Origin: Deltaproteobacteria bacterium
GTDB taxonomy: Bacteria; Desulfobacterota; GWC2-55-46
Length of the DNA: 64,000 nucleotides
Direction of reading: 5' to 3'
Assembly: GCA_016234405.1 (NCBI GenBank)
Contig: JACRCC010000048.1
Location: forward strand, 28,968 to 92,967
Part shown: one piece after another, positions 4,496 through 26,912 of the stretch
Position numbering within the stretch: position 1 is the stretch's first letter
How the letters are laid out: each line of letters begins with the position of its first letter
Translations under genes and position numbers: made by a program
The notes under the pieces: model-generated
Seen by the model: the letters and a program-made list of their open reading frames with translations, nothing else
Told to the model about the DNA's origin: nothing
The model's database searches: none

Positions 4496-4572
4496 TGGCG
4501 CCCCCGAGACGATTCGAACGTCCGGCACGCAGATTAGGAATCTGCTGCTCTATCCATCTGAGCTACGGGGGC
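4496..4572 (-). tRNA. tRNA-Arg (anticodon CCT), CCA encoded
   Basis: The reverse complement folds as a canonical cloverleaf. Acceptor GCCCCCG/CGGGGGC, D-stem GCTC/GAGC, anticodon stem GCAGA/TCTGC with loop TTCCTAA (anticodon CCT), T-stem GGACG/CGTCT with loop TTCGAAT, discriminator G + CCA. Confidence 0.85.
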
Positions 4573-5546: not shown

Positions 5547-6086
5547 ATGTTCCACCGAATTCTTTTTTTGGGCTTAATTATGTTCCTGCTCTGTCTGTGC
5601 ATACACGTCGCGGTGTGGAGGAATCGTTATCCTAAAAACAGACCCGCGGCGCTTCTTTTTATCTTTATTGTTTTGCCTGTAATTGCCGCGTCAATGTTAG
5701 CGGCGTTAAGCCGTTTTGCCGTTTTTATGCCTTTTGACGTGGGAACATGGGGGATTCCTCTCATTGAGTTTACCGGGGCATACCTCCTGCACTTTTCACT
5801 CTCGGCCGCGTATATCATGAGTTACCCGGCCGTGGAAGCCGTCTCGCCGTCACTCATGCTCGCGCTCATAATAGGCGGATCCAACGAACGAGGGGTGTCC
5901 ATTGAAGAGCTTATTTCGACCTTTGACGGCAAGTTTCTCCTCGAACCGAGGATTAAAGACTTGAAAGACGCAGGCATGGTGAGCGAATCGAAAGGTCTCC
6001 TTTCGCTTACTCGCCGTGGAAAGAGTTTTGTAACGCCTTTCATCGTTTTAAGACGCGCGCTCGGATTGCCGATAGGAGGGGGGTGA
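5547..6086 (+). CDS. membrane-anchored protein with C-terminal winged-helix-like domain (paralog B)
   Basis: About four N-terminal TM helices, then GVSIEELISTF…RIKDLKDAGMVSESKGLLSLTRRG (MarR/PadR-like wHTH pattern). Paralogous to 6093..6701. Confidence 0.35.
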   Translation: MFHRILFLGLIMFLLCLCIHVAVWRNRYPKNRPAALLFIFIVLPVIAASMLAALSRFAVFMPFDVGTWGIPLIEFTGAYLLHFSLSAAYIMSYPAVEAVSPSLMLALIIGGSNERGVSIEELISTFDGKFLLEPRIKDLKDAGMVSESKGLLSLTRRGKSFVTPFIVLRRALGLPIGGG

Positions 6087-6092
6087 TATTTC

Positions 6093-6701
6093 ATGGACGG
6101 ACTAATTCCGGCGCTTATGCTGCTTTCCGCGGCGCCGATGCTTGTGTTTTTTATGCAACTCGCGGCAAACGGGTTTTTAAAGGCGCTAAAAATAAAAATA
6201 TCAAACCAGCTCGTCGTGATATTGTGCTGTGCGGCCGGCCACGCGCCAATAGCTGCAATCCTTTGGACCGTGTATCTGCAAAAAATCGCCTCCGCGTCTG
6301 AACTGACGCTCGCCGCGCTATATTGTCTCATCGTCTATAACGCCCTTGCATACTCCTACTTCCACCTCTTCAATATGAGCGAGACGGCAAGGCGCATCCG
6401 TATACTTTACGAGATATACTCCACCGGCGTTTTAAGCGCGTCTCAGATAGCGTCGTCTTACAACCCGTCTGTCATGGTGAAAAACAGGATTGAAAGGCTT
6501 GTCGCGATGAGGCAGATAAAACAGAGCGGCAACCGGTACTTCCTCGATCAAAGGCTCATCTTTGCCGTCTCCTCCGCCGTTGCAGGCTGGGGCGCCCTTC
6601 TCAGTATACCGTATCCTGCAATGAGGAAATCCGCCTCCAACGGGAAGGCGCGGCTTGGGCAGTCCCTCGTGAAACAAGACGCCAAGCAAGACGCCGCATG
6701 A
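6093..6701 (+). CDS. membrane-anchored protein with C-terminal winged-helix-like domain (paralog C)
   Basis: TM-rich N-terminus, then VLSASQIASSYN…RIERLVAMRQIKQSGNRYFLDQRL. Starts 7 nt after paralog B. Confidence 0.35.
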   Translation: MDGLIPALMLLSAAPMLVFFMQLAANGFLKALKIKISNQLVVILCCAAGHAPIAAILWTVYLQKIASASELTLAALYCLIVYNALAYSYFHLFNMSETARRIRILYEIYSTGVLSASQIASSYNPSVMVKNRIERLVAMRQIKQSGNRYFLDQRLIFAVSSAVAGWGALLSIPYPAMRKSASNGKARLGQSLVKQDAKQDAA

Positions 6702-6706: not shown

Positions 6707-7156
6707 TCAGGTATCCCGCGCCTTAACGACCTCGCGTATCGAGGTGAAGTATCCCCGCCTCCTCCTCACTAAATACTCCGCTACCGAAAATGCCCTCGCG
6801 TAAGGACGTCCCATATAACTCAGCTGCAGCTGGTCCAAGAGATGATGAAAGAGAAACCCCATCAGGACAAGATTGGCTTCGTCAAGATATAAGCCCGCGA
6901 CGTAGAGCACGGCGTAACACTCGAGCGTGTGAAATACGTTAAGACCTAAAAAGTTGTCGAGGTTATTTAAGAGCGTGTCGTGGTATTTGAAAAGGCCTCT
7001 TATGCTGACGCTTTTGGTATCGAGCCAGTACTCAATAAAATGGTCGAGGTCTATGGCAACCACCGCGGCGCCGAATATGAGGGCATTGAACCCGATAAAC
7101 GGATATAGCGCGGCCGCCCCTGCCGCAGCCTGCGCCGCGTGCGCCTCTGGTTTCAA
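6707..7156 (-). CDS. YdjM/DUF457-like membrane-bound putative hydrolase (paralog 2)
   Basis: Same DxDH / FKYHD / VFHTLE / GFLFHHLLD / RAFSVAEY motif set as 4646..5113. Stop overlaps the start of the upstream YfhO gene. Confidence 0.4.
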   Translation of the reverse strand: MKPEAHAAQAAAGAAALYPFIGFNALIFGAAVVAIDLDHFIEYWLDTKSVSIRGLFKYHDTLLNNLDNFLGLNVFHTLECYAVLYVAGLYLDEANLVLMGFLFHHLLDQLQLSYMGRPYARAFSVAEYLVRRRRGYFTSIREVVKARDT

Positions 7157-9612
7157 GCTGATTTTTCTCCCGCTCGTTTTTTGAAGGCTTCCACCGTTAT
7201 AACGCCAACGGAGACGGCCAAACCCAAGTAATACAACACAAGGGCCGTCATGTATAGCCGAGGTTCAAACGACATCACCACTGTATGCTCCCCCTTTTCG
7301 AGATAAACGGCCTTTCCGTTATAGTTGGCCGTTGCTATCGGCGTTTCATTACCGTTGACATAAGCCTTCCAGTGCCTGCTCCAGCCGTCGTTGTAGAGTA
7401 AATACCCTTGGGTCTTATTTTTGACCAAAACGGTAATGCCGTTCACGTTGAAATCTATCAGTTTCACGTCCCCGCCAAAAGCCTTGACGCCGCCAGCTAT
7501 GGAATCTTTCAATACCGCAAACGCCTTTACGTTACCTTCGCTGAATCTCTTCCAGTATTCGTCCACGGCGCTATTTTTTAACCATAAGACGTCCTCGAAC
7601 TTGCTTAAGTCACCTAATCCGGTCTCCGCTTGCCCCGACCCTTCTCTCCTCGCCTGTTTGCCGTCTTTTTCCACATACAAAAAACCGTCAAGCTCCTCAG
7701 GCGCGGCATGGCCTAACCGGTCGAGAAGAGAATTCCTGTCCTGTGCCACCCTCACCTTTGAGAGCGGGTAAAAACCGAGGATAGGCGACGTTACTCCGTT
7801 TAAGACGAATTGGTTGGCCAGAGGCGCGTTAGTAAGGAGGTCATAATATCTTTTGGTGGTGAATAACGAGTGGTTATAGCCTCTTGAGAGCGCGCCTTTG
7901 CGCATGGTCAAACTTTCTCCGAAGGCCACGTCGGGGAGCGAACCGTAAGGCGCCCTTAGATATTCAAATTCGTTTTTCCCCCCTTTCGGGCGCGCATCGT
8001 TAATGACGCCATAGAGGGTTGCCGAGTCTTTAAGGACGCTGCCTTTGATCGAATCGTTGTATAAATAAAGGTCGGTCAGGACAAGCGCCGCTATCACCGC
8101 AAAAAAAAACTTTTTGCCGAATAGACCGCGCGAGTAAATGGCCGCGGAGATAACAAAAAAAACGACGGCGAGCATCACGAGTTCGTCGGTTGAAGATTTG
8201 AAAACTGCCCGCTTGAAGAGATATGCCGTTAACCCGGCCTTCACGAATATCAGCGCAAGCCCGATAACTATTACCCCGTGATATTTCTCCTTGAAAAAAT
8301 CCTTATAACCGCACCCGTCAAAAATAAGCGACAGACCGAAACTCATGAGAAGACCCAAATACAAAAAGATGAAACTGTTAAGCGTCTCCCTCACCTCCAG
8401 CATCTTGAGCGGCGGGAAGACCGCGTTAAAGGCCTTTTGCGCGGCGTTGAAAGGTTTTGCGTCAACGCCTGAGCCGCTGAACATGTTCAATGACACGAGG
8501 ACGAGCATGAGGGCGCACACGAACCGCAGTCTTGATTTTGTATAGATAAGACCTATCACGGCCAAGATGAGCGGGACCATGCCGAAATATTGAAAGGTCT
8601 CGGATATCAGGTTCTCGTCCGAGAACCAATCGCCGGGGTTTGAAAACGACTTCCACATATCCTGATATAGAAGGCTCAGCGCGTTTCCGTATGAACTGAA
8701 AACCCCCCTTTGCCCGGTGAACTCCCCGGACAGGGATGCGCTGTTGATGCCGGAGGCCGCAATCTTCTTGAACTGGAGATTATTTTTTTGAATTATCCTC
8801 TGCATGGGAAAAAGCTCTCCGCCGCCGGATGCGTCAAAATACATAACGGCCGCGGGTGGAGCGGCCATTATCATCGTTATCACAACGCAACCAAGCACGA
8901 AGGTCAGAAGTTTTGTTGAGACAAGATTCTTTAAAACCCTCCTCATGTCTACAATCTTGAACAAAAACAGCCCTAACGCAAAAAAGACGATATTGAAGAG
9001 GTAAAACGACGGGATAAAAACGTTCATGGTGACGCCCGTTATCAGCGTAAACACGGCGAGGTGCAGATACCTGCGCCGAGTCTCGATGCATTCAAAAAAA
9101 AGCAGAAGAAAAAACATGGCTAAAGGCGTCAAAAAGACGTTGTCAATGACCCCCATCTGTCTCAGATAAGACGGCGTAACGGCAAGGAGGACGCCTCCGG
9201 CGGCAAGCGCAGCCGCAGACTTTTGTTTAGTCAGATGTTTGAAGAGAAGATACGCCCCGATGACGAAGATAAAGAGCCTGACAAGCCTGAAGTAGACGTA
9301 AGCGGTGAGCGCAGAGATACCGAAGACCTTTACCGAGAAGGCGCTTATAAGGACAACGGGGTCGAGAAGCCCCATGTGGGATATATTGGGGTAGAAGTAA
9401 GTGCCGGAAATCAGGTAGGGGTCCCAATAGGGGAATCTCAGATTACCGAGCGACTCTATGAAGTAGTGGAAGCTCCCATACCAGATTATCGAATCATGGA
9501 TGAATATCTCGCTGCAAATAAGCAGCTTATAGTAAAGAACGGCAAAAATAACCGCAACTGCCGCGCTGACGGCTATCATCGTGATGTCTCCTCTTGTGGA
9601 CATGCGCAGCAT
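7153..9612 (-). CDS. YfhO-family polytopic membrane protein (GT-C-like glycosyltransferase), paralog 1, no CBM insert
   Basis: 819 aa; many TM helices. Conserved N-terminal HDxxxWYGxFHYFxESL…PYWxPY and C-terminal GWxxHWKAYVNGxE…G(E)HTV plus a final TM, shared with the other two paralogs and typical of YfhO. Confidence 0.5.
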   Translation of the reverse strand: MLRMSTRGDITMIAVSAAVAVIFAVLYYKLLICSEIFIHDSIIWYGSFHYFIESLGNLRFPYWDPYLISGTYFYPNISHMGLLDPVVLISAFSVKVFGISALTAYVYFRLVRLFIFVIGAYLLFKHLTKQKSAAALAAGGVLLAVTPSYLRQMGVIDNVFLTPLAMFFLLLFFECIETRRRYLHLAVFTLITGVTMNVFIPSFYLFNIVFFALGLFLFKIVDMRRVLKNLVSTKLLTFVLGCVVITMIMAAPPAAVMYFDASGGGELFPMQRIIQKNNLQFKKIAASGINSASLSGEFTGQRGVFSSYGNALSLLYQDMWKSFSNPGDWFSDENLISETFQYFGMVPLILAVIGLIYTKSRLRFVCALMLVLVSLNMFSGSGVDAKPFNAAQKAFNAVFPPLKMLEVRETLNSFIFLYLGLLMSFGLSLIFDGCGYKDFFKEKYHGVIVIGLALIFVKAGLTAYLFKRAVFKSSTDELVMLAVVFFVISAAIYSRGLFGKKFFFAVIAALVLTDLYLYNDSIKGSVLKDSATLYGVINDARPKGGKNEFEYLRAPYGSLPDVAFGESLTMRKGALSRGYNHSLFTTKRYYDLLTNAPLANQFVLNGVTSPILGFYPLSKVRVAQDRNSLLDRLGHAAPEELDGFLYVEKDGKQARREGSGQAETGLGDLSKFEDVLWLKNSAVDEYWKRFSEGNVKAFAVLKDSIAGGVKAFGGDVKLIDFNVNGITVLVKNKTQGYLLYNDGWSRHWKAYVNGNETPIATANYNGKAVYLEKGEHTVVMSFEPRLYMTALVLYYLGLAVSVGVITVEAFKKRAGEKSA

Positions 9613-9615
9613 TAC

Positions 9616-10359
9616 TTAGCTCCCGGCGCAGCGCTTGACGATCCTCGAGACTAAAAAATCCGGTAAAAATCTCATTGTCTTGCTTATGAAGGCATTAAGA
9701 AACGGAAAGTCGAAGACGCCGTTTAAACCCGGCGACGCAAGACGCCTGACAATTTTTTGAGCGGCGCTTTTGTAATGGATTTTAAGAAGTCCTGTCCTTG
9801 ACTCGTCAGGCGACATTCCGCCTGGATTAACGGTTACAAAACGCACCTTCGACGGCGTCATCTGCAGTCTCATGCACTCAAACGTCATGCTGAGCGCGGC
9901 CTTACTGCCGCTGTAAGCTATTTTTTTGTTGTTTAATCCCCGATAAGATGAAAGCGATGATATGGCAACGAAAGTCCCTCCATCCCTCTCCACGAAGACC
10001 GGTAAAAAAAGGTCGAGCCACGCAACGGCCCCAAAGAGGTTTATCGCGTAGGTCTTCTTGAACACGTCATAAGAAAACGTCCCGTCAAGGTCGTTTTCCA
10101 TGACCCCGGCGTTTAATACCACAATATCCGGCACAAAACCCGCCTCCTTCATCTGCGCCCGCACGCGCTCGGCGTCGGCCATTACGGAGACATCGCAAAC
10201 GCTGAAACGGAAAGACCCGTTAGACGTTAAACGCCCATCATTGTCCCATGCCTCAATCTTCCTCCTCGCAACGCCCCAGACCTTATGCCGCTCCGTTAAA
10301 AACTCGTTTGTCAGCGCCCTTCCGAGACCCGACGATACGCCCGTTATAAACACGTTCAT
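9616..10359 (-). CDS. short-chain dehydrogenase/reductase (SDR)
   Basis: ITGVSSGLG (TGxxxGxG), NAG motif, catalytic YSGSK (YxxxK). 247 aa. Confidence 0.7.
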   Translation of the reverse strand: MNVFITGVSSGLGRALTNEFLTERHKVWGVARRKIEAWDNDGRLTSNGSFRFSVCDVSVMADAERVRAQMKEAGFVPDIVVLNAGVMENDLDGTFSYDVFKKTYAINLFGAVAWLDLFLPVFVERDGGTFVAISSLSSYRGLNNKKIAYSGSKAALSMTFECMRLQMTPSKVRFVTVNPGGMSPDESRTGLLKIHYKSAAQKIVRRLASPGLNGVFDFPFLNAFISKTMRFLPDFLVSRIVKRCAGS

Positions 10360-10373
10360 CCTTCACCATTCCT

Positions 10374-13340
10374 TTATTCTTTAGTTCCGTTATCCTTTTT
10401 TCTCGCTGATACTATGACCCCGTTTATGATAAACGCCGCTCCGAAGATGAGATTGGCTGCAACGTATATTTTAACGGCAAGAAGAAAAAACCAAGGGTTG
10501 TAGCGGAATATGACCGTGTGTTCGCCTTTCTTTAGAGGCACGGCCTTGAACGAGAGGTTTGCCCTGTGGAGTCCGTGCTTTATGCCGTCCACAAAGACCT
10601 CCCAGTGGCTGTCATAGATATCCCTGTAAAGGAGCACGCCGTCTTCGCGCCCCTCAACGTCGAGTTCGAGCCGCGTGGGGATGTAAGACCTGACGGCGTA
10701 TTTGAAAACACCGTCCTTTGGTTCGCCGTTAGGCGCGCCGCTCGCTGAGGGCACGGTAGTCAAAAGATGCGCAAAATCACCGTCTAATTCACCGGATACA
10801 AATACGGCATTATCGAGCGCCTTTGACAAGGCGGCCGGGTCGCGTGTCAGCATACCCCATCCTGACTGTTCGTCAATAAGGGTAAGGGATGCGTCATCGA
10901 ATACCGCAGGGGCGTCTGCGCGTGATGAGACGTTACAGGTTAAGTGCAAGACCTTCGCCCCTTTGCTTATTCTTGCGGACGCCGATATCTTTTGCCAGTC
11001 TCCGGTCTTTGAAAATGACGATATTGACGGCGGCCCAATGCCGTCTTGCAGGTCAATTTGCACCACGTCACGCTCGCCGTTGTTGCTTTTTACCCAAATT
11101 GAGAATACGGCGCGTTTTCCGGCGTCTCCTTTTTTCAGATTGACGCTTTGCCGGAGCATTGAATTGCCTTCCGACGACGGCGCCACCATCGCTCCAATCT
11201 TGCCTTTTAAATGCGCGATTTTTTCCATCCGCACCGAACCGTTTTTGCCGCCCTGTGTGTAGTCCCATGATGACGGACGTTGAGACGCGCCGTCCACCCA
11301 TGTCTCGAATGAGCCGTTTAAAACGGTCTTTTCGTATCCCCCCGCCGATGGAGCGGGGGGATATTCTATGACTCCGCTTTTGAACGTCTGAAACTGCGCA
11401 GGCACAGCCATCATAACCGCCTTCGTAAAATAGGCGATCAAGGGCGCTTGAATACCGGCGAGCTTTTTGAAAATCGGGGTGTTCTCCTCAGCCACCTCGT
11501 AAAGAATAAAATACGGTTTCAGCCAAAAATGATAAAGGCCCTGCGAAAAATTCATCTTGAAGTCCGCCGTTATATTCGTGGGCTGGCCGTTTCTCTTGGA
11601 CGGGATGAGGTCGTCAAATGAAGCGTTCACCTTGAGGATTGTCGGACTGTAGGCAAGATACGTTTTTTTAAGGTTAAGCCCCGCCACCCTCTCCGTAGAC
11701 AGCGTCCATGATTCGGATGCGTTTTTACCGAACTGAAATCCCGAAAAATATTCGTCGCGGTTTTGTTTGAAATGGTGTCCGTCCTCGCCGTGATAATCGC
11801 ATATAACGATAGTTTCCAAAATGATCAGCATCATCATAACTGACAAAAGCACGCCGGACTTTACCGCAGGTTTGAAGAATTGAAAGAAGAGAAAGATACC
11901 CGCGAGGGAAAAAACCAAAACCGCGATGAACCAATCCCTTGAAAATGTTAGAAAGAAATGATTGAAAAAATTGGCGTTCATGACGACGAAGTAGAAAAAA
12001 CACCCTGCGACGGCGACTATCGAAAGGTCAACAAAGACGCCTCTCAGACTTATGCGTCCACCATCAACCGGCAATGGAACGAACTGTGATTTTCCCGCGG
12101 TTTCAGATTTTAAAAGATATTCGAGCATTGCGTCCGCGCCGAGTCCGATGAAAAATATACCCGCAAAAAAAACAAAAGGCTCAAACATGCTAAAGTGTCT
12201 TACGAGCCATAACGGCGGGAATGAGAAGTAGAGTATCTGATGGAGAAGACGTATATCTTTTAAAGGGCCGATATACAATATATACATGACCACGGTTAGG
12301 GCGGCGAAATTCCATTTGAACCTATGAACTCCAAACAACAACCCTATGACAAAAAGTATCCGAGCCGCCCAGCTTATCTCAGGATATTCGTAGTGCCTTC
12401 CGTAAGGCAAAAAACCGAGCAGATAATCGGGATTGCCTACGCCGATTTGCGGGTCTCTTTTCTTCATCATCTCGTAATCAACCCCGAGGATGCCGGCGAT
12501 TCCCTGCGTCTTCTTCTCCACGCGTGAATAATCCCTTGCTATCGGGACTATATTGGCCCTCTCCGGCATAAGGGACAATATCGGGAGCGAGAGCGCGGCT
12601 AAAAGCGCCGCGCTGATTATTACGACCCTCTTATCCTGCGTGAAGACGTTGCGCAGTTCCTTTCTCTGCCTGAGGACCAGGGTAATGAGGAAGACCGCGA
12701 TGAAATAGAACGGCAGCGCCCAATGATAGGTGGATGCGCCGAAGACAACGCCGCAAAGGTAGGCGAAGGCCATCACGTCATACTTGCTTGACCTGTCAAG
12801 CATCCGCATGAGGAAATACATCATCCATGGCAGCCAAGAAAAAACGTCAATATTGCCGACGGAAAGAAGCGTTGACTCGGCCAGCAAAAGGCATACAACC
12901 ATAACCACAAAGAGGCTGAGAAACCTCTTGAAGATGCGCCTGTAGAACAGATATATCCCCGCAAGGGTCACGACGATGCGGATTATGTAATTGTAATGAT
13001 AGAGGTCGAAAAGCGGCGGGTTGAAAAATTTTGCAATCACGATGACCGAGAGCGTAACGGGGTCAAGAAGGCGCAGTATCCCCCACGCGTAATAAAACGG
13101 CTCCCCGCCGTGCACATACGGATTCCATGTCGGCAAAAAACCGCTCCACAGCGATTCAACGAAGTAGTGGAACATGCCGTACCAGAGGATGCCGTCGTGC
13201 ACGTAGGTGCTTTTGCCGAGCATGATGCTCCGTTCCATGTAAAGGTAAAGGGCAAGCAAAATCCCGATAAAAAAAAGCTCTCTCTTGACGCTTTTCGAAT
13301 CACACGCGCCTGAGAAAAACCAATTCAAAAATTGAGTCAT
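10374..13340 (-). CDS. YfhO-family membrane protein, paralog 2, with CBM4/9-like beta-sandwich insert in the extracytoplasmic region
   Basis: 988 aa; same N- and C-terminal YfhO signatures. Internal NGSFETW…SSEGNSMLRQ…VQIDLQDG segment resembles CBM_4_9 carbohydrate-binding modules. Confidence 0.5.
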   Translation of the reverse strand: MTQFLNWFFSGACDSKSVKRELFFIGILLALYLYMERSIMLGKSTYVHDGILWYGMFHYFVESLWSGFLPTWNPYVHGGEPFYYAWGILRLLDPVTLSVIVIAKFFNPPLFDLYHYNYIIRIVVTLAGIYLFYRRIFKRFLSLFVVMVVCLLLAESTLLSVGNIDVFSWLPWMMYFLMRMLDRSSKYDVMAFAYLCGVVFGASTYHWALPFYFIAVFLITLVLRQRKELRNVFTQDKRVVIISAALLAALSLPILSLMPERANIVPIARDYSRVEKKTQGIAGILGVDYEMMKKRDPQIGVGNPDYLLGFLPYGRHYEYPEISWAARILFVIGLLFGVHRFKWNFAALTVVMYILYIGPLKDIRLLHQILYFSFPPLWLVRHFSMFEPFVFFAGIFFIGLGADAMLEYLLKSETAGKSQFVPLPVDGGRISLRGVFVDLSIVAVAGCFFYFVVMNANFFNHFFLTFSRDWFIAVLVFSLAGIFLFFQFFKPAVKSGVLLSVMMMLIILETIVICDYHGEDGHHFKQNRDEYFSGFQFGKNASESWTLSTERVAGLNLKKTYLAYSPTILKVNASFDDLIPSKRNGQPTNITADFKMNFSQGLYHFWLKPYFILYEVAEENTPIFKKLAGIQAPLIAYFTKAVMMAVPAQFQTFKSGVIEYPPAPSAGGYEKTVLNGSFETWVDGASQRPSSWDYTQGGKNGSVRMEKIAHLKGKIGAMVAPSSEGNSMLRQSVNLKKGDAGKRAVFSIWVKSNNGERDVVQIDLQDGIGPPSISSFSKTGDWQKISASARISKGAKVLHLTCNVSSRADAPAVFDDASLTLIDEQSGWGMLTRDPAALSKALDNAVFVSGELDGDFAHLLTTVPSASGAPNGEPKDGVFKYAVRSYIPTRLELDVEGREDGVLLYRDIYDSHWEVFVDGIKHGLHRANLSFKAVPLKKGEHTVIFRYNPWFFLLAVKIYVAANLIFGAAFIINGVIVSARKKDNGTKE

Positions 13341-13347
13341 AATTTCT

Positions 13348-13896
13348 CTATTTCACCTCCCATTCAGCTATGGATGTGTGGTTTTTATCCGACACGGTCT
13401 TCAATATCCTCAGTCTGTAATGGGAATACTTATCCGTTTGTTTGAGCGAATACGTATTTTTAACGGCGTCCCACTTTTGTCCTTTTTTTTCTTCGATGGT
13501 CTTCCAATCGGCGTCAGAACTTGGAAGATTGTCGGAGGCTGCGCCCTCAAGGATAAAATCAACCGGCGCTTGAGTAGCTGTTATCTCGGAACGCCGCGTT
13601 ATGGCGTAACCGGAGGCCGCGAACGGTTTTGAGAATGACATCGAAATCCAGCCGTAGTCGCCGGCAGGGCCTCCTGAATGCCAGAACGTCTTGGCGTCAT
13701 TGTCGTAAAACTTCAAGGGGTTTAACGACTCCGAATATATGCTCTTTGCCCCCAACACGACGTCTCCAGACTTTTCGAATACCGGGGACTTTGTTTGAGT
13801 CTTGACGGAAGAGGCGGTTTCACTTGAATCGCATGACATGCAAACCGCCAAAATCAAAATTGAAATTGCCGCAGTGAACAGGTCTTTTTTCATCAC
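13348..13896 (-). CDS. secreted/lipoprotein with F5/8 type C (discoidin)-like domain
   Basis: Signal peptide with Cys (ILAVCMSC). …KTFWHSGGPAGDYGWISMSF…VDFILEGAASDNL…WKTI… matches the discoidin-domain pattern. Confidence 0.45.
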   Translation of the reverse strand: MMKKDLFTAAISILILAVCMSCDSSETASSVKTQTKSPVFEKSGDVVLGAKSIYSESLNPLKFYDNDAKTFWHSGGPAGDYGWISMSFSKPFAASGYAITRRSEITATQAPVDFILEGAASDNLPSSDADWKTIEEKKGQKWDAVKNTYSLKQTDKYSHYRLRILKTVSDKNHTSIAEWEVK

Positions 13897-13910
13897 ATCC
13901 CTCCTTGTGT

Positions 13911-15047
13911 TTAGATATGGAATACCTCTTGAAGCTGTCTTTTGACGATGTATACGAGCTGTCTTGCCGAAAGTCCGAGCAAGAGATTGTAGTCGTTATT
14001 ACTCAGATGCGGGCATGCCACGCATCTGTTGGTTTTTCTCACGTGTTCAATGGCCTTTGCAACGCCCACCTCCTTTAAGTTGAGCGCCTTGAATTCCTCG
14101 TTCAAGGGAAAACACGGATAGACATAACCGTTAGCCTCCACCACGAACTTCGACCGCCCGTAATAGCATCTGATAGGCTCGAAACCAACCGGAAGCTCTT
14201 GGGGGGTCGCATGGTGTTTTACGTTGTAATCGAATGGCCAGCTCATCGAGTAGTTAAGGCATCTGTCCGAGGTGAAGATGGGATAGCCCTGATTTTTGAA
14301 ATACAGTATCTTGGAGAGAGATTCCCTTATCTCCTCCTGACTCATCCCCATGTCAAGAGCCTTTTTCAGAGGCTTGTAAAGTATGCTGAAGTAGAGCTGG
14401 AACTTATGCTCCTTTGCAAGTTTTGCGAGGAATTCTATGTCGTGCATGGTGTTGCGCGTGAGCGTAGCCGATACGCGCAAACGAAATTTTTCTTTTGACG
14501 CAAGTTTGATGGCGTCTACGGCGGCCTTGAAAGACCCCGTACCCCTGTTGAGATCGTTGCCCGCTTCATTGCCGTCAAGGCTTATGCAGAGGCTGTCAAC
14601 GTTCCTGACCACGTCAAGATTTTGCGCCAACAAAATTCCGTTCGTGATGAAGCCGACGTAGATACCCTTCCTTTTGATGTAATCAACGATATAACCGACG
14701 TCCTTCCTGAGAAGCGTCTCCCCGCCGTGGACCACCATGTATCTCGTCCCTAAGGCGTAGAGATCGTCTATGACCTTGACGAGTTCCTCGGTCGTATAAT
14801 CCTTGTCGCGTCTATTGCCGTAGTCGCCGAAACAGTAATGGCAATCGAGATTGCACCTGTTGTTCACGACAAGCACGACGGAAATCGGCTCGCTCTTCCC
14901 AAGGGCTTTATTGCGGACTATCCTATACGGGAATACGAGTCTCTGACGTATTGTAGACAGGGCCTTGTTCCAATGTTTTTTGTCAGTTTTCAGTTCTTTT
15001 GAAATCATACGCGGCCCCCTTGGACTTTGTGTTTTCAACGGAAACAT
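13911..15047 (-). CDS. radical SAM enzyme with C-terminal SPASM/twitch-like Cys-rich domain (peptide/protein-modifying maturase class; anSME-like). True start possibly at 15008
   Basis: CNLDCHYCF (CxxxCxxC) radical SAM cluster motif. C-terminal …CYYGRSKFVVEANGYVYPCFPL…NRCVACPHL fits auxiliary Fe-S (SPASM) cysteine patterns. Confidence 0.65.
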   Translation of the reverse strand: MFPLKTQSPRGPRMISKELKTDKKHWNKALSTIRQRLVFPYRIVRNKALGKSEPISVVLVVNNRCNLDCHYCFGDYGNRRDKDYTTEELVKVIDDLYALGTRYMVVHGGETLLRKDVGYIVDYIKRKGIYVGFITNGILLAQNLDVVRNVDSLCISLDGNEAGNDLNRGTGSFKAAVDAIKLASKEKFRLRVSATLTRNTMHDIEFLAKLAKEHKFQLYFSILYKPLKKALDMGMSQEEIRESLSKILYFKNQGYPIFTSDRCLNYSMSWPFDYNVKHHATPQELPVGFEPIRCYYGRSKFVVEANGYVYPCFPLNEEFKALNLKEVGVAKAIEHVRKTNRCVACPHLSNNDYNLLLGLSARQLVYIVKRQLQEVFHI

Positions 15048-15771
15048 TGTATAGACTGAGAAGTTCGGCTATCTCCTTTTCGGTAAGCGGGTTTGTCCAC
15101 ACGGCAACCTCGTCAATGCCCCCCCTGTAATATCTCGCGTCGCTGGAAGTGAATTTTCCGAAGGTCATCGGCGCGGGGTTGAATTTAAAGGTTTTGTAAT
15201 TTGCGGTCGCCCGCGACTTTCTGCCGTTCACGTAAGCGCTCATGCTTTTATTCTTTTTGTCTATGATGAGAATGACGTGAGACCATTTTTCGCGCGGCAC
15301 GTTGACAATTACGACGTTTCCGCTCGAATACCACGCAAACTTCTCCGCCTTCCTGTCGGTTGATTGGAATACCATGTTGCTTGCCTCGTCATGGTCCGTA
15401 TCGAAGACTATGCAGTTCGAATCCATTTCACACTCTTCGGGTTTCATCCACAATGAAACGGTAACCCCGGATTCAAAACTCGCGGTATTGACGAGGGTAT
15501 CTATATGCGAATCCCTGCCGTTGAAATGCGCGGCCTTTCCCGAAACCCCCTCAACCTGTTCCGTCCGGTACGTCCTCATGCTGTTTATCCCCTTGGAGTC
15601 GGTGAACAGGTCTCCCTGATTCGCATCCATGTCCCAATGCGCCAACGCCTTCGACAGGATATTTTTTTGTTCTTTCTTCGGTTGGCCGGTCTCTGCCGCA
15701 TAACATTGACCGGTCGAAAAAACAGAAACTGCCGCGAAAAGCACGGCGATAAAAAAACCTTTAACTTTCAT
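14983..15771 (-). CDS. secreted LamG-like (concanavalin-type jelly-roll) domain protein
   Basis: Signal peptide MKVKGFFIAVLFAAVSVFSTGQCYA. C-terminal GGIDEVAVWTNPLTEKEIAELL is the hallmark Laminin_G_3 motif. The 3' end overlaps the radical SAM gene start. Confidence 0.55.
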   Translation of the reverse strand: MKVKGFFIAVLFAAVSVFSTGQCYAAETGQPKKEQKNILSKALAHWDMDANQGDLFTDSKGINSMRTYRTEQVEGVSGKAAHFNGRDSHIDTLVNTASFESGVTVSLWMKPEECEMDSNCIVFDTDHDEASNMVFQSTDRKAEKFAWYSSGNVVIVNVPREKWSHVILIIDKKNKSMSAYVNGRKSRATANYKTFKFNPAPMTFGKFTSSDARYYRGGIDEVAVWTNPLTEKEIAELLSLYNVSVENTKSKGAAYDFKRTEN

Positions 15772-18700
15772 CTTTCTCCCTCCTTTCCGTCGTCTGTGCG
15801 GTCTGTCCGGTTATTACGTTTGTCATGAAGAAACAAGAACGCAGCGGCAAAAACACTCATTGAAAAAACCGAGTAAAAAACAGACAAGGCCGCTTTGAAG
15901 AGCGCAGGCTCAAAAACGAATGTTATCTCGTTTGTGCCCTTTATCAGCGGGATGGCCTTGAAATTGACGTTTGCCCTGTAGATACCGGTCTCTACCCCGT
16001 TTACATAAGCCTTCCATGATTTATCAAAACCGTCCGACCAATAAAGGAAACCGTCCTCGTCGGACACGGCAGTAATCCGGATAGAGTTGTAATCGTAGTC
16101 ATGCACCGTGTATCTGAATGGATTTTTTAGGGGGCCGCCGCTTGGGACAACCGCCGGCTGCCCCCCGCCGGCCTCTTGCGAGAGTATGACGGTATCCTCT
16201 AAAAATCTGACGCCTTCCTCTGGCGTCATTTTTGCGAAGAAATTCCGCAAGCCATCATCTCCAACCCTGCGCGCATGTCTCTTGAACTGGAACTGCGGCT
16301 CGCCTATCGCAAAGGTTTTTTCAATGACCTGATGAGGCGCCCCTGAGTGTATGAGTTTGTAATAATTGCTCGTCAAAAGAAAACTGCTCCATCTTTTCAT
16401 TCTCAAACCGTACTCAAATGTCTTTTCCCTGAGCGGTATGTATTGAATTGCCGCGTCTTTGAATATTGCATCAGACCTTGCCTCCGACTTCACGTTCAGG
16501 GTAAAAAAAACGGCATCAACGCCGCCATCAATGTGTTTTTCCACGGTCAGGGTTTCCCACTCGCCGGAATTGCCGTATGAAACGGTTTTAACCGGCAAGA
16601 CGCCGTCCTGAACGTCTATCTGGACGCCGCCCGGCGCCTGTGACATGCTCTTGGCCTTTACGGAAAACCAGACATACGCGTCCTTTACCGAACCGGATGA
16701 ACTTCTGAACTGAACGAGCGAATTACCCTCGGACGAAGGGCTGATACTCATGATGACTGAGCCGTCGGACATTTTTTTTTCTTTAAACTCTCCGCCGTCG
16801 CCGTCCTGGCTGTATGTTAAAGGCAGGTCGAAAAACTTCTTAGACGCCGACGTTTTAACCAGCGTAATTTTCTTGCCGGTGTAGTCTATCGGTTCATCGG
16901 GCATGACCGTTGAAAGGGCATCCGCCTTGCGATGCAGTACCGACAGATACCTCATTGACTGTTCCCCTTGCAACTGAGACGGCTCAATGTAAACCGACCG
17001 CTGCCAAAACCAATCAGGTCTTTGCGGCGTGGTTCGCACCTTGTAGGCGCCGCCGGGGTGTTTTGCGGACTCATAAAGAAATGATGTCTTTCTCAGGCTG
17101 AACGTGAGGTCGAGGAGCAGGCATATATAAAATATGACAAGCGCGAGGGCAAAAAAATATCCGTTAAAGAGACCTTTAGAGGACGATCTTTTGTTGATAA
17201 TTTTCAATATCAAAAAAACCGTAATAGGGATGAGGAGCGATACCGCCATGTACTTCAGGAATTTATGGGCGTTGTTTGAAAAGACTAAAACGGCTGCGAC
17301 GTGCAGGACAACCGCTCCCGCGTAAAGCCGCTTGGAGCCGATCGTTTTCCACAACAGCAGAAAAGTCAGAATACCCAAAGGAATAAAGACGGATAGATAC
17401 TCGCTTACAAATTTAGCGAGTTCCTTCACGGCCGTATATCCGAACATCATGTATGCAGCGGCCCCTAACGCTAAGACTACGACGGCGGAGGGCGCCGCAT
17501 ATTTCTTGAGGTCAACTTCGGTTTTACCGGGAAAGATATCCGTTTCCCATGTCTTGAAAAGGTGATTGAGCCCGATTACATAAAAGAAAAGAAGGGAGAA
17601 TATGAAGAAAAGCACGAAGGTGTGCGTGTGCCTCACGAACCACATCGGAGGATAGACGTAATAAAGCGCCTTGTGCAGACCGCCTGCGGGCCCGAGCATA
17701 AGAAGCGCGGTCGCGGCAAGGACAAATAACCATACTCGCTTGAGTTCATGAGTCCCTGCTATGACGCCGATGAGGGAAATCGCCCACGGCAGAAAACCGA
17801 GATACATGTAGGCCTCTGACGGTTTCCCCCACAAACTCCGATTAGGCCACCGTATGTGGTCATTTCCGTCAGGCGCTATCAGCTGTATGAAGTCGCTGAT
17901 ATGAGAAAACGTCCCGGTGTGAGCAATGAGTTTATAGGGCATGATTATGCCGGAAACCGGCAACGAAGACGGCCCTGACTCATACTGGACAGGGCCTCCG
18001 AGAGGCGGCTTATTTTCATACGCGTCATCCACCATCCGCGCAGGAAAGACGAATTTGCCCTTTTCGGCGAACAAAACGACGTCGGGCGCGGCCATCATGA
18101 CGACTATCAATAAGGCTGCGCCTGCCCTAAGAACCGATGGCCGCGTATTCCGGAAGTCCCGCAAAAGGTCAATCCTAAAGATGCAAACCCCGGCAACGAA
18201 AAAAAGGGAAAAAATCCATGCCCCCGTAAAGAAGTACGACTGCCAGTTGAGACCGGTCACCGCGCCGAGCATAAGATAGTTGTGCCAACTGTGGTCTTTC
18301 TCCCAGATGATGTTGAGGAAGAAGTATGTGATGTACGGGACCCAGATGAACTGGTTGAGTATCGCATCCTGCCTAAAAGAACCTAGCATAAAAGAGGAAA
18401 AAAGGAGTATGGGGATGATGCTCGCGCGCGTAAAGACGTTTAGCGCAAAACGTCTCAACACGATATGAACGCCAAACGCCGTTACAAGCAGCTCGATAAA
18501 CCTATTCCAGTTAAAGAGCATAACGATGTCGTTTGTCACAAACCTGCCGAGCAAAATCGTCAGCCATGCGGCCGGCTCATAAAACCTTAACTGTGCGAGC
18601 GCCGGATAGAAAGGCTCGCCGCCGTGACTGAACGGATTCCAGTAAGGCAGCCTCAAACTCATGAGGTTTTCGGCAAAAAATTGATATATCGGGTAATTCC

Positions 18701-18872
18701 AGTAGAGGTTGTCGTGGATGAGGGTTGTCTCTCCGGTGATGAGCATCTTCCTTAGCGTATAGACGAGAAAGAGGGTCGAGACCGCCGCCGCGCACAACTC
18801 TATTGTGAGCGTATGCCTGTCAAATATCTTGCTGAGTTTATTGCCGGAATCCATCATGGGTGATTTTGGCAA
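15768..18872 (-). CDS. YfhO-family membrane protein, paralog 3, with CBM4/9-like insert
   Basis: 1034 aa; HDNLYWNYPIYQFFAENL…PYWNPFSHGGEPFY N-terminal signature and GFDKSWKAYVNGVE C-terminal signature. Internal SPSSEGNSLVQF…VQIDVQDG is homologous to the paralog-2 insert. Confidence 0.5.
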   Translation of the reverse strand: MPKSPMMDSGNKLSKIFDRHTLTIELCAAAVSTLFLVYTLRKMLITGETTLIHDNLYWNYPIYQFFAENLMSLRLPYWNPFSHGGEPFYPALAQLRFYEPAAWLTILLGRFVTNDIVMLFNWNRFIELLVTAFGVHIVLRRFALNVFTRASIIPILLFSSFMLGSFRQDAILNQFIWVPYITYFFLNIIWEKDHSWHNYLMLGAVTGLNWQSYFFTGAWIFSLFFVAGVCIFRIDLLRDFRNTRPSVLRAGAALLIVVMMAAPDVVLFAEKGKFVFPARMVDDAYENKPPLGGPVQYESGPSSLPVSGIIMPYKLIAHTGTFSHISDFIQLIAPDGNDHIRWPNRSLWGKPSEAYMYLGFLPWAISLIGVIAGTHELKRVWLFVLAATALLMLGPAGGLHKALYYVYPPMWFVRHTHTFVLFFIFSLLFFYVIGLNHLFKTWETDIFPGKTEVDLKKYAAPSAVVVLALGAAAYMMFGYTAVKELAKFVSEYLSVFIPLGILTFLLLWKTIGSKRLYAGAVVLHVAAVLVFSNNAHKFLKYMAVSLLIPITVFLILKIINKRSSSKGLFNGYFFALALVIFYICLLLDLTFSLRKTSFLYESAKHPGGAYKVRTTPQRPDWFWQRSVYIEPSQLQGEQSMRYLSVLHRKADALSTVMPDEPIDYTGKKITLVKTSASKKFFDLPLTYSQDGDGGEFKEKKMSDGSVIMSISPSSEGNSLVQFRSSSGSVKDAYVWFSVKAKSMSQAPGGVQIDVQDGVLPVKTVSYGNSGEWETLTVEKHIDGGVDAVFFTLNVKSEARSDAIFKDAAIQYIPLREKTFEYGLRMKRWSSFLLTSNYYKLIHSGAPHQVIEKTFAIGEPQFQFKRHARRVGDDGLRNFFAKMTPEEGVRFLEDTVILSQEAGGGQPAVVPSGGPLKNPFRYTVHDYDYNSIRITAVSDEDGFLYWSDGFDKSWKAYVNGVETGIYRANVNFKAIPLIKGTNEITFVFEPALFKAALSVFYSVFSMSVFAAAFLFLHDKRNNRTDRTDDGKEGER

Positions 18873-18884
18873 GCCTTCGAGTTC

Positions 18885-20456
18885 TTATTGCCTAATCCCT
18901 TTGAAAAAGAACTTGCGGCACATGGAACTCGCAATGAGGTAATAAAACACCCTAAAAAAAACAGTGCCGCCCAAGAGGGTAAGCTCGATGAGCGTCTTCA
19001 ACGACTTCATGTCTTTGTTTGAGACCTCGAACCATTTGCCGCTCCCGCTCTGCTTAGGGTTGAAAAGATTTTTCAGATTGGTCCAATTCAGGTAAAAAAG
19101 GAGATTCGCAAGGAGCACCGTGCCCTCGAGTTCTTTATCCGTAGACCCCTCAGGCACATAAGGCAACGGAGACCTTTTAAAAAGCCCGCCGGTGACAGCC
19201 CCGGCTGAGCTGAAGTTCGCCCACATCGGCTCGACCTTCAATCTATCCCTGACCATTTCATACATGGCGGTGCCGGGATACGGGGTGGCGTTATTGAAGC
19301 GTGCCCTGTCCAGACCGATTTCTTGCGCCAACCTCAGCGCCTTGAGCCTGTCATCGAAAGTTTCGGTGGGAAAACCGAATATAAACGTCGCTTCAACCGC
19401 AAAACCCATGTCCTTCCCGAGCCTTATTGCGTCTACGTTCTCTTTGACCGTTTCTTTTTTGTTGATGAGCAGCATGAGATTTTCGGAGGCGGTCTCGACG
19501 CCGAACATAAGGCTTCCGAAGTTGGCCTCCCGCATCGCCTTCATCAAAGGACGGTCTATGCTGTCGCCGCGCGTCTGAACCCCGAAAGACGCCTTCTTGT
19601 GAAAACCCCTCTTTTTTATAAGCTCGCACAGTTCAAACACGCGCTCCCTGTTCCCGGTAAAATAGTCGTCAAAGAAAGTAATGTTTGGCTGTTTGAGCGT
19701 GTTGATGAGGTAGTCGAGCTCCGCGATGACCCTTTCCGAGGAAATATATCTATACCTTCTTTTGGTTATGACCCTCTGAGAGCAGAATATGCAATCAAAA
19801 GGGCATCCCCTCGACGTCAGGATGAAGCCGAGGTTATAACGGGTCGGGTCGTACATGTCGTACGGGAATATCGGCACGTCGTCTACGTTTACGGTCCTCT
19901 CAGACGGTTTCGCATAGACGATGCGACCGTCGGCCGGTTCGATAAAGCCGATGTTCTCAAGCCTGTCTTTATCTATGTTCCCGCCCTTTATCTGATTAAG
20001 AAGTTCGAGGAAGGTATACTCGCCCTCGCCCTTTACGACGAAATCCACGCAGCCGCTTCGCAACACCTCATCAGGCATGACCGTTGCGTGAATGCCGCCG
20101 AAGACAATGACGGCGTCTTTGTCAACCGATTTAACGAGCCTTGCTATCCTATACCCGCTCGCGACATTAGCGGTCATCACGCTTATGCCTACGACCCGCG
20201 GGCGATTGCAGCCGTTGAGTATCTCCGTGATACTTGCCCTGTCAAGGTCTACAAGCTCATTGTCTACAATCCTTACGGAGTGTCCTTTTGACCTTAAAAA
20301 GCCGGCAAGGATGCCTATACCTATCGGAACGCTTCTCGGCACGAACCTCTTGAACCTCCCAAGCTGCTCGTTGAACGGCGACACGAGGACGACGTCGTGC
20401 ATTAAATCCTCCATTGCAGGATTAATAAACGCATTCATGATGAACGCGCAAGTCAA
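18885..20456 (-). CDS. cobalamin(B12)-binding-domain radical SAM protein (class B radical SAM, methyltransferase-like)
   Basis: N-terminal B12-binding-like Rossmann segment (VVGISVMTANVASGY…VIVFGGIHAT) followed by TSRGCPFDCIFCSQ (CxxxCxxC). Confidence 0.65.
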   Translation of the reverse strand: MTCAFIMNAFINPAMEDLMHDVVLVSPFNEQLGRFKRFVPRSVPIGIGILAGFLRSKGHSVRIVDNELVDLDRASITEILNGCNRPRVVGISVMTANVASGYRIARLVKSVDKDAVIVFGGIHATVMPDEVLRSGCVDFVVKGEGEYTFLELLNQIKGGNIDKDRLENIGFIEPADGRIVYAKPSERTVNVDDVPIFPYDMYDPTRYNLGFILTSRGCPFDCIFCSQRVITKRRYRYISSERVIAELDYLINTLKQPNITFFDDYFTGNRERVFELCELIKKRGFHKKASFGVQTRGDSIDRPLMKAMREANFGSLMFGVETASENLMLLINKKETVKENVDAIRLGKDMGFAVEATFIFGFPTETFDDRLKALRLAQEIGLDRARFNNATPYPGTAMYEMVRDRLKVEPMWANFSSAGAVTGGLFKRSPLPYVPEGSTDKELEGTVLLANLLFYLNWTNLKNLFNPKQSGSGKWFEVSNKDMKSLKTLIELTLLGGTVFFRVFYYLIASSMCRKFFFKGIRQ

Positions 20457-20799
20457 ACCGGGCCGTCATTCATGGTGAAGTTCAAAGGATGTAAACCGCG
20501 CAGGAGCGCTATGGTGCGGAGATGTGTCTCTTGGAGGAGCGTCTAAGGTGAGTTTCTTGTTGATGTGCCTATGCGGTGACGTTGCGAGATACGTCTATAC
20601 TTAACATGGAATTTGAACAAAGAGCCGAGTTAATCAAGTTAACTTGAACATGGCTGCGACAAAACGGCCTCATTCGGCGGCATTGCCTTTTTTCATCTTA
20701 TTTGAACTGCAGGCTGGTCATACGCGCTGACGGCGCTACGTTGAGCATGATGCAATTATAGCGGTGGAAAAGGCGTTGTCAAGTCCCCGTGAAAAATCA

Positions 20800-20841
20800 A
20801 ACAAAAAAAACGCTTAGGGCCATCGTAAATAAGCCCTAAGC
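20800..20841 (-). terminator. rho-independent terminator downstream of the DUF1858 gene (minus strand)
   Basis: Hairpin gcttagggc / gccctaagc (9-bp stem, 12-nt loop), followed on the minus strand by an 8-T run. Confidence 0.4.
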
Positions 20842-20901
20842 GTCTAACGTTTAAACCTGAAATGAACATCTTTGAAGGATTGGCACACCGCTCATCTGTT
20901 T

Positions 20902-21114
20902 TCAGTTCTTCTTGGCAGCCTCGATAAGCTCTCCGACGAACACATTGACGTCCGTCGAGTGCATGGTGCACGCCATCGAAATCGGTTCGCCGCCGAAGGC
21001 AGGGCAGGTAAAGCAACCCGTGCCGAAGTGCTTGCTGAAAACCTCTTTGGTTTTAGGCCACCTTGTCGTAACCTCGCCCGTAGTCATGTCGCCCGTTATA
21101 TTTATCTCTGACAT
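20902..21114 (-). CDS. DUF1858-domain protein (hybrid-cluster-protein-associated redox disulfide domain family)
   Basis: 70 aa; DMTTGEV…FGTGCFTCPAFGGEPISMAC…VNVFVGEL fits the DUF1858 pattern (GxxCxxCP core). Preceded by a GGAGG RBS. Confidence 0.5.
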   Translation of the reverse strand: MSEINITGDMTTGEVTTRWPKTKEVFSKHFGTGCFTCPAFGGEPISMACTMHSTDVNVFVGELIEAAKKN

Positions 21115-24353: not shown

Positions 24354-24415
24354 AATAAGTTGGTTATCGGTTTAAGGATAATTATTCTTTCACCTTCACC
24401 GGTAACTTTTTTATA

Positions 24416-26910: not shown

Positions 26911-26912
26911 AC

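Follow-up and report, generated by a model that had tools for sequence, protein, structure and literature searches.

GT-C glycosyltransferases and lipid-linked donors underlie lipopolysaccharide (LPS), teichoic-acid, arabinan and protein glycosylation, and radical SAM enzymes are the main means by which anaerobes functionalise unactivated carbons. Here, we describe a nine-gene operon (g1 to g9, positions 6707-20456) in which genes of both kinds are combined, located in a 64-kb window – the whole stretch of DNA analysed, 64,000 nucleotides of contig JACRCC010000048.1 – from an uncultured Deltaproteobacteria groundwater metagenome-assembled genome (MAG; locus tags HY884_05485 to 05525 on a 93.7-kb contig). 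It encodes three large paralogous membrane proteins with a predicted GT-C fold (g2, g6 and g8), a B12-binding and a second radical SAM enzyme (g1 and g4), a short-chain dehydrogenase/reductase (SDR; g7), two secreted proteins (g3 and g5), and a small membrane protein (g9). We lean, with modest confidence, towards reading the operon as a system for the assembly or decoration of an extracytoplasmic glycan from polyprenyl-phosphate sugars tailored by the radical SAM enzymes.

Multi-component transmembrane glycosylation has been described as a scheme of GT-A, flippase and GT-C components (PMC8035078). The operon resembles the three-component systems CsbB/GtcA/YfhO (in Bacillus, Staphylococcus and Listeria) and GtrA/GtrB/GtrC of O-antigen glucosylation in having large multi-pass GT-C proteins whose presumed catalytic loop lies at the outer face and whose C-terminal domain is extracytoplasmic; moreover, the C-terminal ~75 residues of its GT-Cs match Pfam YfhO, and genes for GtrA and a GtrB-sized glycosyltransferase of family GT2 come directly before the g8 orthologs. 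However, the hosts are diderm, uncultured anaerobes with three to five tandem paralogs, the window operon has neither a GT2 nor a flippase, and the YfhO similarity does not extend beyond the C-terminal tail. Unlike in any described three-component system, a B12-type and a Twitch-type radical SAM enzyme, an SDR and a YdjM-like protein consistently accompany these GT-Cs.

Two further pathways invite comparison. Mycobacterial EmbA/B/C and AftA-D are likewise tandem paralogous GT-Cs of ~1000 aa with outer domains resembling carbohydrate-binding modules (CBMs), and DprE1/DprE2 are an oxidase and an SDR reductase that tailor the donor sugar while it is on polyprenyl phosphate. The operon nevertheless shows no detectable homology to these proteins, a radical SAM enzyme would take the place of the flavoenzyme DprE1 as its oxidase, and its host lacks a mycolata-type wall. 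In the ArnT pathway, a GT-C enzyme uses an undecaprenyl-phosphate sugar that ArnD modifies on the lipid before flipping; the operon differs in lacking homologs of ArnA to ArnF, in the much larger size and the CBM-like domains of its GT-Cs, and in its proposed radical SAM tailoring.

Among radical SAM enzymes, BtrN and AprD4/AprD3 – the latter a radical SAM and SDR pair – act on sugars, and AprD4-like enzymes do not bind cobalamin. With its B12-binding domain, radical SAM core and weak HpnJ and AprD4 matches, g1 can be likened to HpnJ, the calditol synthase Cds, BtrN, AprD4/AprD3 and the GenK-type class B methylases, although every match of the operon to these enzymes falls far below cutoff and none of them is known to be encoded beside a GT-C. 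The presence of both a radical SAM enzyme and an SDR in the operon likewise calls AprD4/AprD3 to mind. HpnJ and Cds act on the sugar heads of lipids (PMC13459092), and that 2026 review of lipid-modifying radical SAM enzymes mentions neither undecaprenyl nor polyprenyl and describes no radical SAM enzyme acting on a polyprenyl-phosphate sugar. Full-text searches of open-access papers, in which absence is no proof, returned none that links YfhO or GT-C with radical SAM and none on B12-binding radical SAM enzymes in glycosyltransferase or polysaccharide gene clusters. A preliminary description of this DNA, made from the letters and their open reading frames (ORFs), had recognised no characterised pathway with this gene combination, and both the literature and the GenBank annotation agree: five of the nine genes, g2, g6 and g8 among them, are labelled 'hypothetical protein'. 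What is new here is the extension of GT-C multi-component glycosylation, itself known, by a conserved set of radical SAM genes with a putative tailoring role.

Three GT-C paralogs and two secreted modules

The paralogy of the three largest genes, proposed in the preliminary description, is borne out by BLASTP (E 3e-31, 9e-22 and 9e-18), with ~25% identity over the N-terminal ~450 residues, which form the membrane region, and over the C-terminus. Hydropathy indicates ~13 transmembrane helices followed by an outer domain of ~400 residues and a last transmembrane helix; in g2, the outer part comprises a CBM-like beta-sandwich (residues ~660-812) and, at the C-terminus, a beta domain that aligns with the last part of Pfam YfhO. 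The first outer loop, just after the first transmembrane helix, carries a putatively catalytic H53-D54 pair in g2, g6 and g8 alike; the pair is nearly invariant family-wide, with no exception in A2 and conservation of at least 90% in A1. By fold comparison, the predicted multi-pass membrane core is common to the PMT, STT3/PglB, ALG, ArnT and Aft/Emb proteins, with figures of 17.4 for Pmt4, 17.2 for STT3B, 15.6 for Pmt2, 15.5 for ALG12, 15.3 for PglB, 13.8 for AftD, 12.7 for both AftA and ALG9, 12.2 for ArnT, 11.8 for AglB and 10.5 for AftB. Because these structural matches of the model coincide with the transmembrane topology and the near-invariant HD pair, assignment of the large proteins to the GT-C fold, as anticipated earlier, is solid.

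The resemblance to YfhO is narrower than first thought. Scores against the Pfam YfhO model (PF09586) are 31.2 bits for g2, 29.0 for g6 and 25.9 for g8, the last being below the gathering cutoff of 28.5. Of the shared N- and C-terminal YfhO-type signatures previously reported, the C-terminal one is present (below cutoff in g8), and the N-terminal one was not detected by hidden Markov model (HMM) in any of the three. 'YfhO-like' is thus best read as denoting the architecture and the common C-terminal domain. NCBI labels some homologs 'YfhO family protein', and sequence searches of the PDB with g8 and with the family profile gave no match.

Both secreted proteins match accessory domains known from glycoside hydrolases. 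The signal peptide and Laminin_G_3 domain of g3 were confirmed; g3 matches a LamG-like arabinanase domain in the PDB (5hon, E 7e-7), and its LamG domain is 32% identical (E 1e-23) to one fused within a 954-aa GT-C paralog of Scalindua. For g5, described beforehand as a discoidin-domain lipoprotein, the F5_F8_type_C match (E 0.006) is below cutoff, but g5 matches a GH92 mannosidase (7nsn, E 7e-6) in the accessory domain at the N-terminus of that enzyme. Discoidin (F5_F8_type_C) domains are also fused to several GT-C family members in other genomes. These LamG and discoidin fusions support a role for g3 and g5 as putative acceptor-binding modules acting in trans, and separate acceptor-binding proteins have been proposed for small GT-C enzymes (PMC8035078).

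Radical SAM enzymes, g9 and the recurring gene partnership

Pfam confirms both the B12-binding radical SAM enzyme and the SDR of the preliminary description. In g1, the B12-binding domain (PF02310; E 3e-21, 76 bits) is joined to a Radical_SAM domain (PF04055; E 3e-24, 86.7 bits) with a conserved CX3CX2C motif, here CPFDCIFC. The protein is probably membrane-tethered, because every g1 ortholog keeps a hydrophobic C-terminal helix followed by a basic tail. Its best NCBIfam matches, set against their cutoffs, are BchE (179 versus 481), ApyD (165 versus 750) and HpnJ (134 versus 577.6), and it also matches HpnR, a ladderane-associated B12-binding radical SAM family and, weakly, AprD4.

For g4, described from its sequence as a CxxxCxxC radical SAM enzyme with a SPASM-like C-terminus, the radical SAM core holds and the SPASM domain does not in its full form. 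The Pfam SPASM match is weak (E 1e-3, score 19.5 versus a cutoff of 21.5), and alignment with four orthologs shows only four conserved C-terminal cysteines (CX12GX4C...CX2C), whereas a full SPASM domain has seven. With four cysteines rather than seven, the C-terminus is Twitch-like, or an abridged SPASM, with the motif for one auxiliary cluster, as in the Twitch enzyme BtrN, whose cysteine spacing may also be similar. Neither mark of a SPASM peptide maturase, the seven-cysteine motif or an adjacent precursor peptide gene, was found. The top NCBIfam match is the mycofactocin maturase, below cutoff, and HpnH scores 56 bits against a cutoff of 225. Taken together, HMM searches upheld the B12-binding/Radical_SAM, Radical_SAM, Laminin_G_3 and SDR domains as first listed, and the SPASM, F5_F8_type_C, YfhO and YdjM calls proved weaker than stated.

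The YdjM-like character of g9 could be reached only indirectly. The protein itself matches no Pfam family, YdjM (PF04307) included, and hhalign of its family against E. coli YdjM was negative (3% probability). However, a profile search of 1.84 billion representatives returned 621 relatives, and 15 of the 42 sampled match PF04307 (best 4.6e-7). Because these relatives match PF04307 and the invariant His, Asp and Glu residues fit, g9 is placed, by transitive homology only, as a divergent membrane protein of the YdjM superfamily. Eight residues are invariant in the family (H6, D36, D38, H39, H76, E79, H104 and D108), making a metal site probable, and the predicted model is all-helical, with no solved structural counterpart.

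Conservation of the gene neighbourhood was examined in related loci (given L-numbers), whose six-frame ORFs were searched with the window proteins. The g2 family comprises 124 homolog cluster representatives (E <=1e-3), and those members that carry a name or title all come from uncultured bacteria. A locus scan with a 12-sequence alignment, taking one genome per species, yielded 22 loci from Deltaproteobacteria/Thermodesulfobacteriota/Desulfobacterales, Nitrospirota, Auribacterota, Scalindua, Elusimicrobia, Bdellovibrionaceae, Planctomycetota and Alphaproteobacteria. Where a locus has 10 kb or more of flank, a B12-binding radical SAM gene lies within 10 kb of all nine close g2 homologs versus two of seven distant ones, although the nine amount to fewer independent observations because three of them (L002, L004 and L030) represent a single type of Nitrospirota cluster. 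The pairing of GT-C and radical SAM genes thus appears robustly conserved across phyla, in at least six bacterial lineages, rather than accidental, and the neighbourhood conservation sought at the outset is found.

The partnership recurs in several forms. The order g9-like, g1-like, g2-like is repeated in L008, L011 (Scalindua) and L013, and a g1-like gene adjoins a g2-like gene in L023; the module of YdjM-like protein, B12-binding radical SAM enzyme and GT-C is present in Deltaproteobacteria, Thermodesulfobacteriota and Scalindua, with g9 homologs elsewhere lying immediately upstream of the g1 ortholog. Orthologs of g1 are 74-75% identical in Deltaproteobacteria and 69% in a planctomycete, and stand beside g2 orthologs, for which identity is only ~44% in the loci compared (L008 and L013). 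Orthologs of g4 (34-42% identity) occur in L010, L011, L030 and L032, and those of g4, the SDR and g9 co-locate among these loci and L033: the SDR comes after the g4 ortholog in L030, and L010 and L033 have SDRs in the company of g9 or radical SAM genes. Scanning metagenomes with the g9 family gave mostly short contigs and added only g9/g4 and g9/SDR adjacencies. One Joint Genome Institute (JGI) contig encodes four, possibly five, YfhO-like paralogs, one of them fused to F5_F8_type_C, together with two B12-binding radical SAM enzymes, one further radical SAM enzyme and two methyltransferases.

The related loci are rich in sugar-pathway genes. Orthologs of g8 (40-43% identical; L039 and L040) directly follow GtrA_DPMS_TM and a GT2 of 309-311 aa, which by gene content and order is the canonical GtrA/GtrB/GT-C arrangement, and one of these two loci also holds two B12-binding radical SAM genes and another GT-C paralog. 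In L041, a run of genes encodes a GT-C, an NTP-transferase, a dehydratase-like protein, a hexapeptide acyltransferase, a DegT aminotransferase, a GT2, a SAM-methyltransferase and a B12-binding radical SAM enzyme; a DegT aminotransferase gene is also found in related clusters, and GT2 genes are present in L002 and L011 as well as L041. The Nitrospirota and Scalindua clusters contain HldE-, GmhA- and cytidylyltransferase-like heptose genes, a split transketolase, GT2 genes and Wzx or LPG_synthase_TM flippases, with up to five B12-binding and three or four other radical SAM genes around one GT-C in Nitrospirota.

The giant clusters of Nitrospirota type (L030/L031 1-20495, L002 and L004) combine five B12-binding radical SAM genes and three or four other radical SAM/SPASM genes with an SDR, an NAD-epimerase, a g9-like gene, HldE/GmhA, a split transketolase, a GT2, an AP_endonuc_2-like isomerase and Wzx, a content which suggests that they make a heavily tailored higher-carbon sugar. 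Two small membrane proteins of ~173 and 177 aa, neither with a Pfam match, form a pair that is conserved with the GT-C gene in Nitrospirota and Scalindua and absent from the window; they flank the GT-C in L002 (9478-9999 and 13271-13804), are both downstream in L011 (14077-15186), and lie 6-7 kb upstream in L006 (2766-3822). The small proteins flanking the GT-C in these clusters were considered as homologs of g3 or g5 and rejected, as they are not homologous.

Proposed function and competing explanations

In the mechanism we propose, g1, g4 and g7 would act on the cytoplasmic side, tailoring a sugar, probably already attached to polyprenyl phosphate, before it is flipped; candidate chemistries are C-methylation and oxygen-independent oxidation/reduction, the latter in the sense of epimerisation or deoxygenation. 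For the radical SAM enzymes, the gene run of L041 suggests a 4-acetamido-4,6-dideoxyhexose as a possible substrate. The polyprenyl-phosphate sugars would then be taken up by g2, g6 and g8 on the outer side of the inner membrane and transferred to an envelope glycan, the three paralogs probably each serving a position or linkage of their own; LPS/O-antigen, an exopolysaccharide or a surface glycoprotein are candidates for this glycan. Acceptor recognition would fall to the built-in CBM-like domains of g2 and g6 and to the free secreted g3 and g5, and g9 may act on the same lipid-linked intermediate or recycle the carrier. A polyprenyl-phosphate donor is suggested by the GtrA and GT2 genes upstream of g8 orthologs and the GT2 genes of related loci; the substrates and chemistry assigned to g1, g4, g7 and g9, and the acceptor, are conjectural. 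That the operon belongs to an extracytoplasmic glycoconjugate system with lectin-like modules, the principal suggestion of the preliminary description, draws support from the GT-C fold, the conserved pairing, the LamG/discoidin fusions and the GtrA and GT2 context.

Several observations weigh against a glycan system of this kind. No GT2 polyprenyl-phosphate sugar synthase is encoded in the operon or the 64-kb window (ORFs of at least 140 aa scanned), nor is a GtrA or Wzx flippase, save for a MurJ-like gene 35 kb away in a separate cluster; because it lacks both, the operon alone is not a complete pathway, and the synthase and flippase would have to be encoded elsewhere in the genome. The YfhO matches of g2, g6 and g8 are marginal and take in only ~756-835 of the 835 model positions; none of the radical SAM and SDR matches reaches an NCBIfam equivalog cutoff, and the nearest named relatives of g4 in NCBIfam and the PDB are the peptide maturases MftC, StsB, SkfB, CteB and PqqE. 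Free-standing orthologs of g3 and g5 were absent from the other loci examined, and the evidence as a whole is genomic and structural prediction from uncultured organisms.

Of the rival explanations, assembly of a polymer in the manner of Emb/Aft is compatible with most of the data: tandem GT-Cs, working one after another, would build a whole polysaccharide outside the membrane from a single lipid-linked monosaccharide donor, with g4 and g7 as an oxygen-independent counterpart of DprE1/DprE2 that oxidises and then reduces the lipid-linked sugar to epimerise it. The three tandem paralogs of the window operon fit such a scheme, as do L008 and the JGI contig with at least four each, the C-terminal CBM-like domains of g2 and g6, which recall Emb and AftD, and the adjacency of a radical SAM gene and an SDR in L030. 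We nonetheless consider it unlikely, given that there is no sequence-level link to Emb/Aft, that g8 orthologs reside in GtrA/GtrB-type decoration cassettes, and that the related clusters carry Wzx flippases and many cytoplasmic sugar-nucleotide genes typical of repeat-unit pathways. Remodelling of a lipid, in which the radical SAM enzymes, like HpnH/HpnJ or calditol synthase, alter the head group of a membrane lipid or glycolipid and the GT-Cs glycosylate a lipid such as lipid A as ArnT does, would account for the HpnJ, HpnR and ladderane-associated matches and the conserved hydrophobic C-terminus of g1 and for the HpnH match of g4, and HpnJ and Cds are precedents for radical SAM chemistry on the sugar of a lipid (PMC13459092). 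It is quite improbable, however, since the Hpn matches lie so far below cutoff that neither HpnJ nor HpnH is present at equivalog level, no shc or hpn genes neighbour the operon in the window or in related loci, nucleotide-sugar, GT2 and flippase genes dominate the related clusters, and the CBM, LamG and discoidin modules point to a glycan acceptor.

Maturation of a peptide or protein, which the preliminary description had kept as a hedged alternative, would have the radical SAM enzymes modify a ribosomal peptide, or g3 and g5 themselves, with the GT-Cs performing PMT/PglB-like O-glycosylation. The peptide-maturase kinship of g4, and the fact that the second-best match of g1 is ApyD, an enzyme of ribosomally synthesised and post-translationally modified peptides, are the points in its favour; yet gaps of at most 14 nt leave no room for a precursor gene, the ORFs of the leader are trivial and unconserved, there is no peptidase and no ABC exporter, g4 lacks the two-cluster SPASM motif and is Twitch-like, every related locus is a sugar-pathway cluster, and g3 and g5 are not conserved partners, so that we regard it as very improbable. 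Juxtaposition of unrelated genes in one transcription unit, without functional meaning, is scarcely credible: MAG operons can be mosaic, and g3 and g5 have no orthologs in other loci, but the operon genes are tightly coupled and overlapping, and the conserved gene set contradicts chance, with five families (g1, the g2 type, g4, the SDR and g9) recurring together across several phyla in varied gene orders.

If the glycan-tailoring function is real, the operon represents a new branch of bacterial glycan biosynthesis, carried by uncultured groups of environmental importance such as Nitrospirota, anammox Planctomycetota and relatives of sulfate reducers, and predicts new sugar structures. It would also supply a function for large 'hypothetical' families, namely the GT-Cs of g2 and g8 type, the 621 representative clusters of the g9 family and a B12-binding radical SAM clade 69-75% identical across phyla. 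A bolder proposal, which we offer tentatively and with considerable doubt, is that this is the first case of radical SAM chemistry on polyprenyl-phosphate sugars, with g1, g9 and a dedicated GT-C forming a conserved, horizontally spreading module through which strictly anaerobic bacteria of six or more lineages would equip their surface glycans with C-methylated, deoxy or ring-rearranged sugars. Sugars of this kind would make up a group of envelope components whose chemistry has yet to be described; unassigned residues, for example the 174-Da unit in the S-layer glycan of anammox bacteria, might belong to it, although this is offered as no more than a lead. The paper on the S-layer glycan of Kuenenia, considered as a possible account of a radical SAM glycosylation cluster, makes no mention of radical SAM; it too serves only as a lead, to heavily methylated glycans in anammox bacteria.

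Operon boundaries and surroundings

The nine minus-strand ORFs have the coordinates given in the preliminary description, and their reading as one tightly packed operon is supported by the junctions, at which neighbouring genes overlap by up to 26 nt or stand at most 14 nt apart, as well as by the promoter-like site and hairpins (Table 1). The unit is well delimited because a promoter-like site and a terminator lie upstream, and a terminator-like hairpin and convergent genes lie downstream. Actual starts fall within the maximal ORFs for g1 (ATG at 20402), g4 (15008) and g5 (13893), giving exact matches to the GenBank proteins; the g1 start has a GGAGG ribosome-binding site, its maximal ORF being 523 aa and extending to 20456. 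A riboswitch in the leader was considered and rejected: there is no Rfam match, and so no known riboswitch, folding is not in excess (z -0.33), and the sequence is unconserved in related loci.

Table 1. Positions of the operon genes and flanking signals in the 64-kb window
Feature	Position	Strand	Description	Basis or remark
g1	18885..20402	-	B12-binding-domain radical SAM enzyme, 505 aa	Pfam PF02310 and PF04055
g2	15768..18872	-	Predicted GT-C-fold membrane glycosyltransferase, 1029-1034 aa	Fold comparison, topology, YfhO C-terminal match
g3	14983..15771	-	Secreted LamG protein	Laminin_G_3 (E 3e-19) and signal peptide
g4	13911..15008	-	Radical SAM enzyme, 365 aa	Radical_SAM (E 1e-22); CX3CX2C
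g5	13348..13893	-	Small exported lipoprotein-like protein, 181 aa, with weak discoidin/CBM32-like domain	Pfam and PDB match
g6	10374..13340	-	Second predicted GT-C paralog, 988 aa	BLASTP, topology; CBM-like middle domain in common with g2
g7	9616..10359	-	Classical SDR oxidoreductase	adh_short (E 1e-28)
g8	7153..9612	-	Third predicted GT-C paralog, 819 aa	BLASTP; without CBM-like insert
g9	6707..7156	-	Helical membrane protein, 149 aa, placed in YdjM superfamily	Homology via intermediate sequences
Promoter-like site	20782-20755	-	TTGACA-16-TATAAT	12/12 match to sigma-70 consensus
Hairpin terminator	~20805-20845	-	Ends upstream DUF1858 ORF	Directly precedes operon promoter-like site
Leader	20403..20754	-	Promoter to g1 start, ~350 nt	Unusually long
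Terminator-like hairpin	6695-6678	-	Just past g9 stop	Neighbouring genes beyond are convergent

A second polysaccharide cluster occupies 46220-63572 (minus strand) and could supply the acceptor glycan for the operon. It encodes a UDP-glucose dehydrogenase, a GT9-like protein, three SAM methyltransferases, three GT4s, the MurJ-like flippase (55052-56626), a PMT_2-like protein (56623-58032) and, weakly, another (52251-53909), a Bac_transf initiating transferase (58540-59949), and several ORFs without Pfam match. A strong positive AT skew (0.25-0.28) at 54000-58000, over the minus-strand genes for the hydrophobic MurJ-like and PMT_2-like membrane proteins, is probably an effect of codon composition.

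Directly upstream of the operon is a complete TetR-regulated resistance-nodulation-division (RND) efflux operon (outer membrane protein, membrane-fusion protein and AcrB; 21240-27662, minus strand), which appears unrelated, and between the two lies a 70-aa DUF1858 ORF (20902-21114, minus strand) with its own promoter-like site (21206-21178) and the strong hairpin terminator listed in Table 1. On the other side, a tRNA gene (4499-4572, minus strand) lies 2 kb past the operon end, and three intervening ORFs of 155-202 aa have no family match; the two on the plus strand (5547-6701) converge on g9, and the third is at 4646-5113 (minus strand). Between 4.6 and 20.5 kb, GC content is 0.50 versus 0.52-0.56 around it, and GC content at third codon positions is also lower; together with the tRNA gene and the 69-75% identity of g1 across phyla, this hints weakly at horizontal transfer of the stretch, and a search for an att-like repeat, which a genomic island might carry, found none. 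Finally, 5 kb from the operon, the plus strand encodes a further concanavalin-like protein of 210 aa (922-1554), whose C-terminal domain is SO2946-like and which matches LamG weakly.

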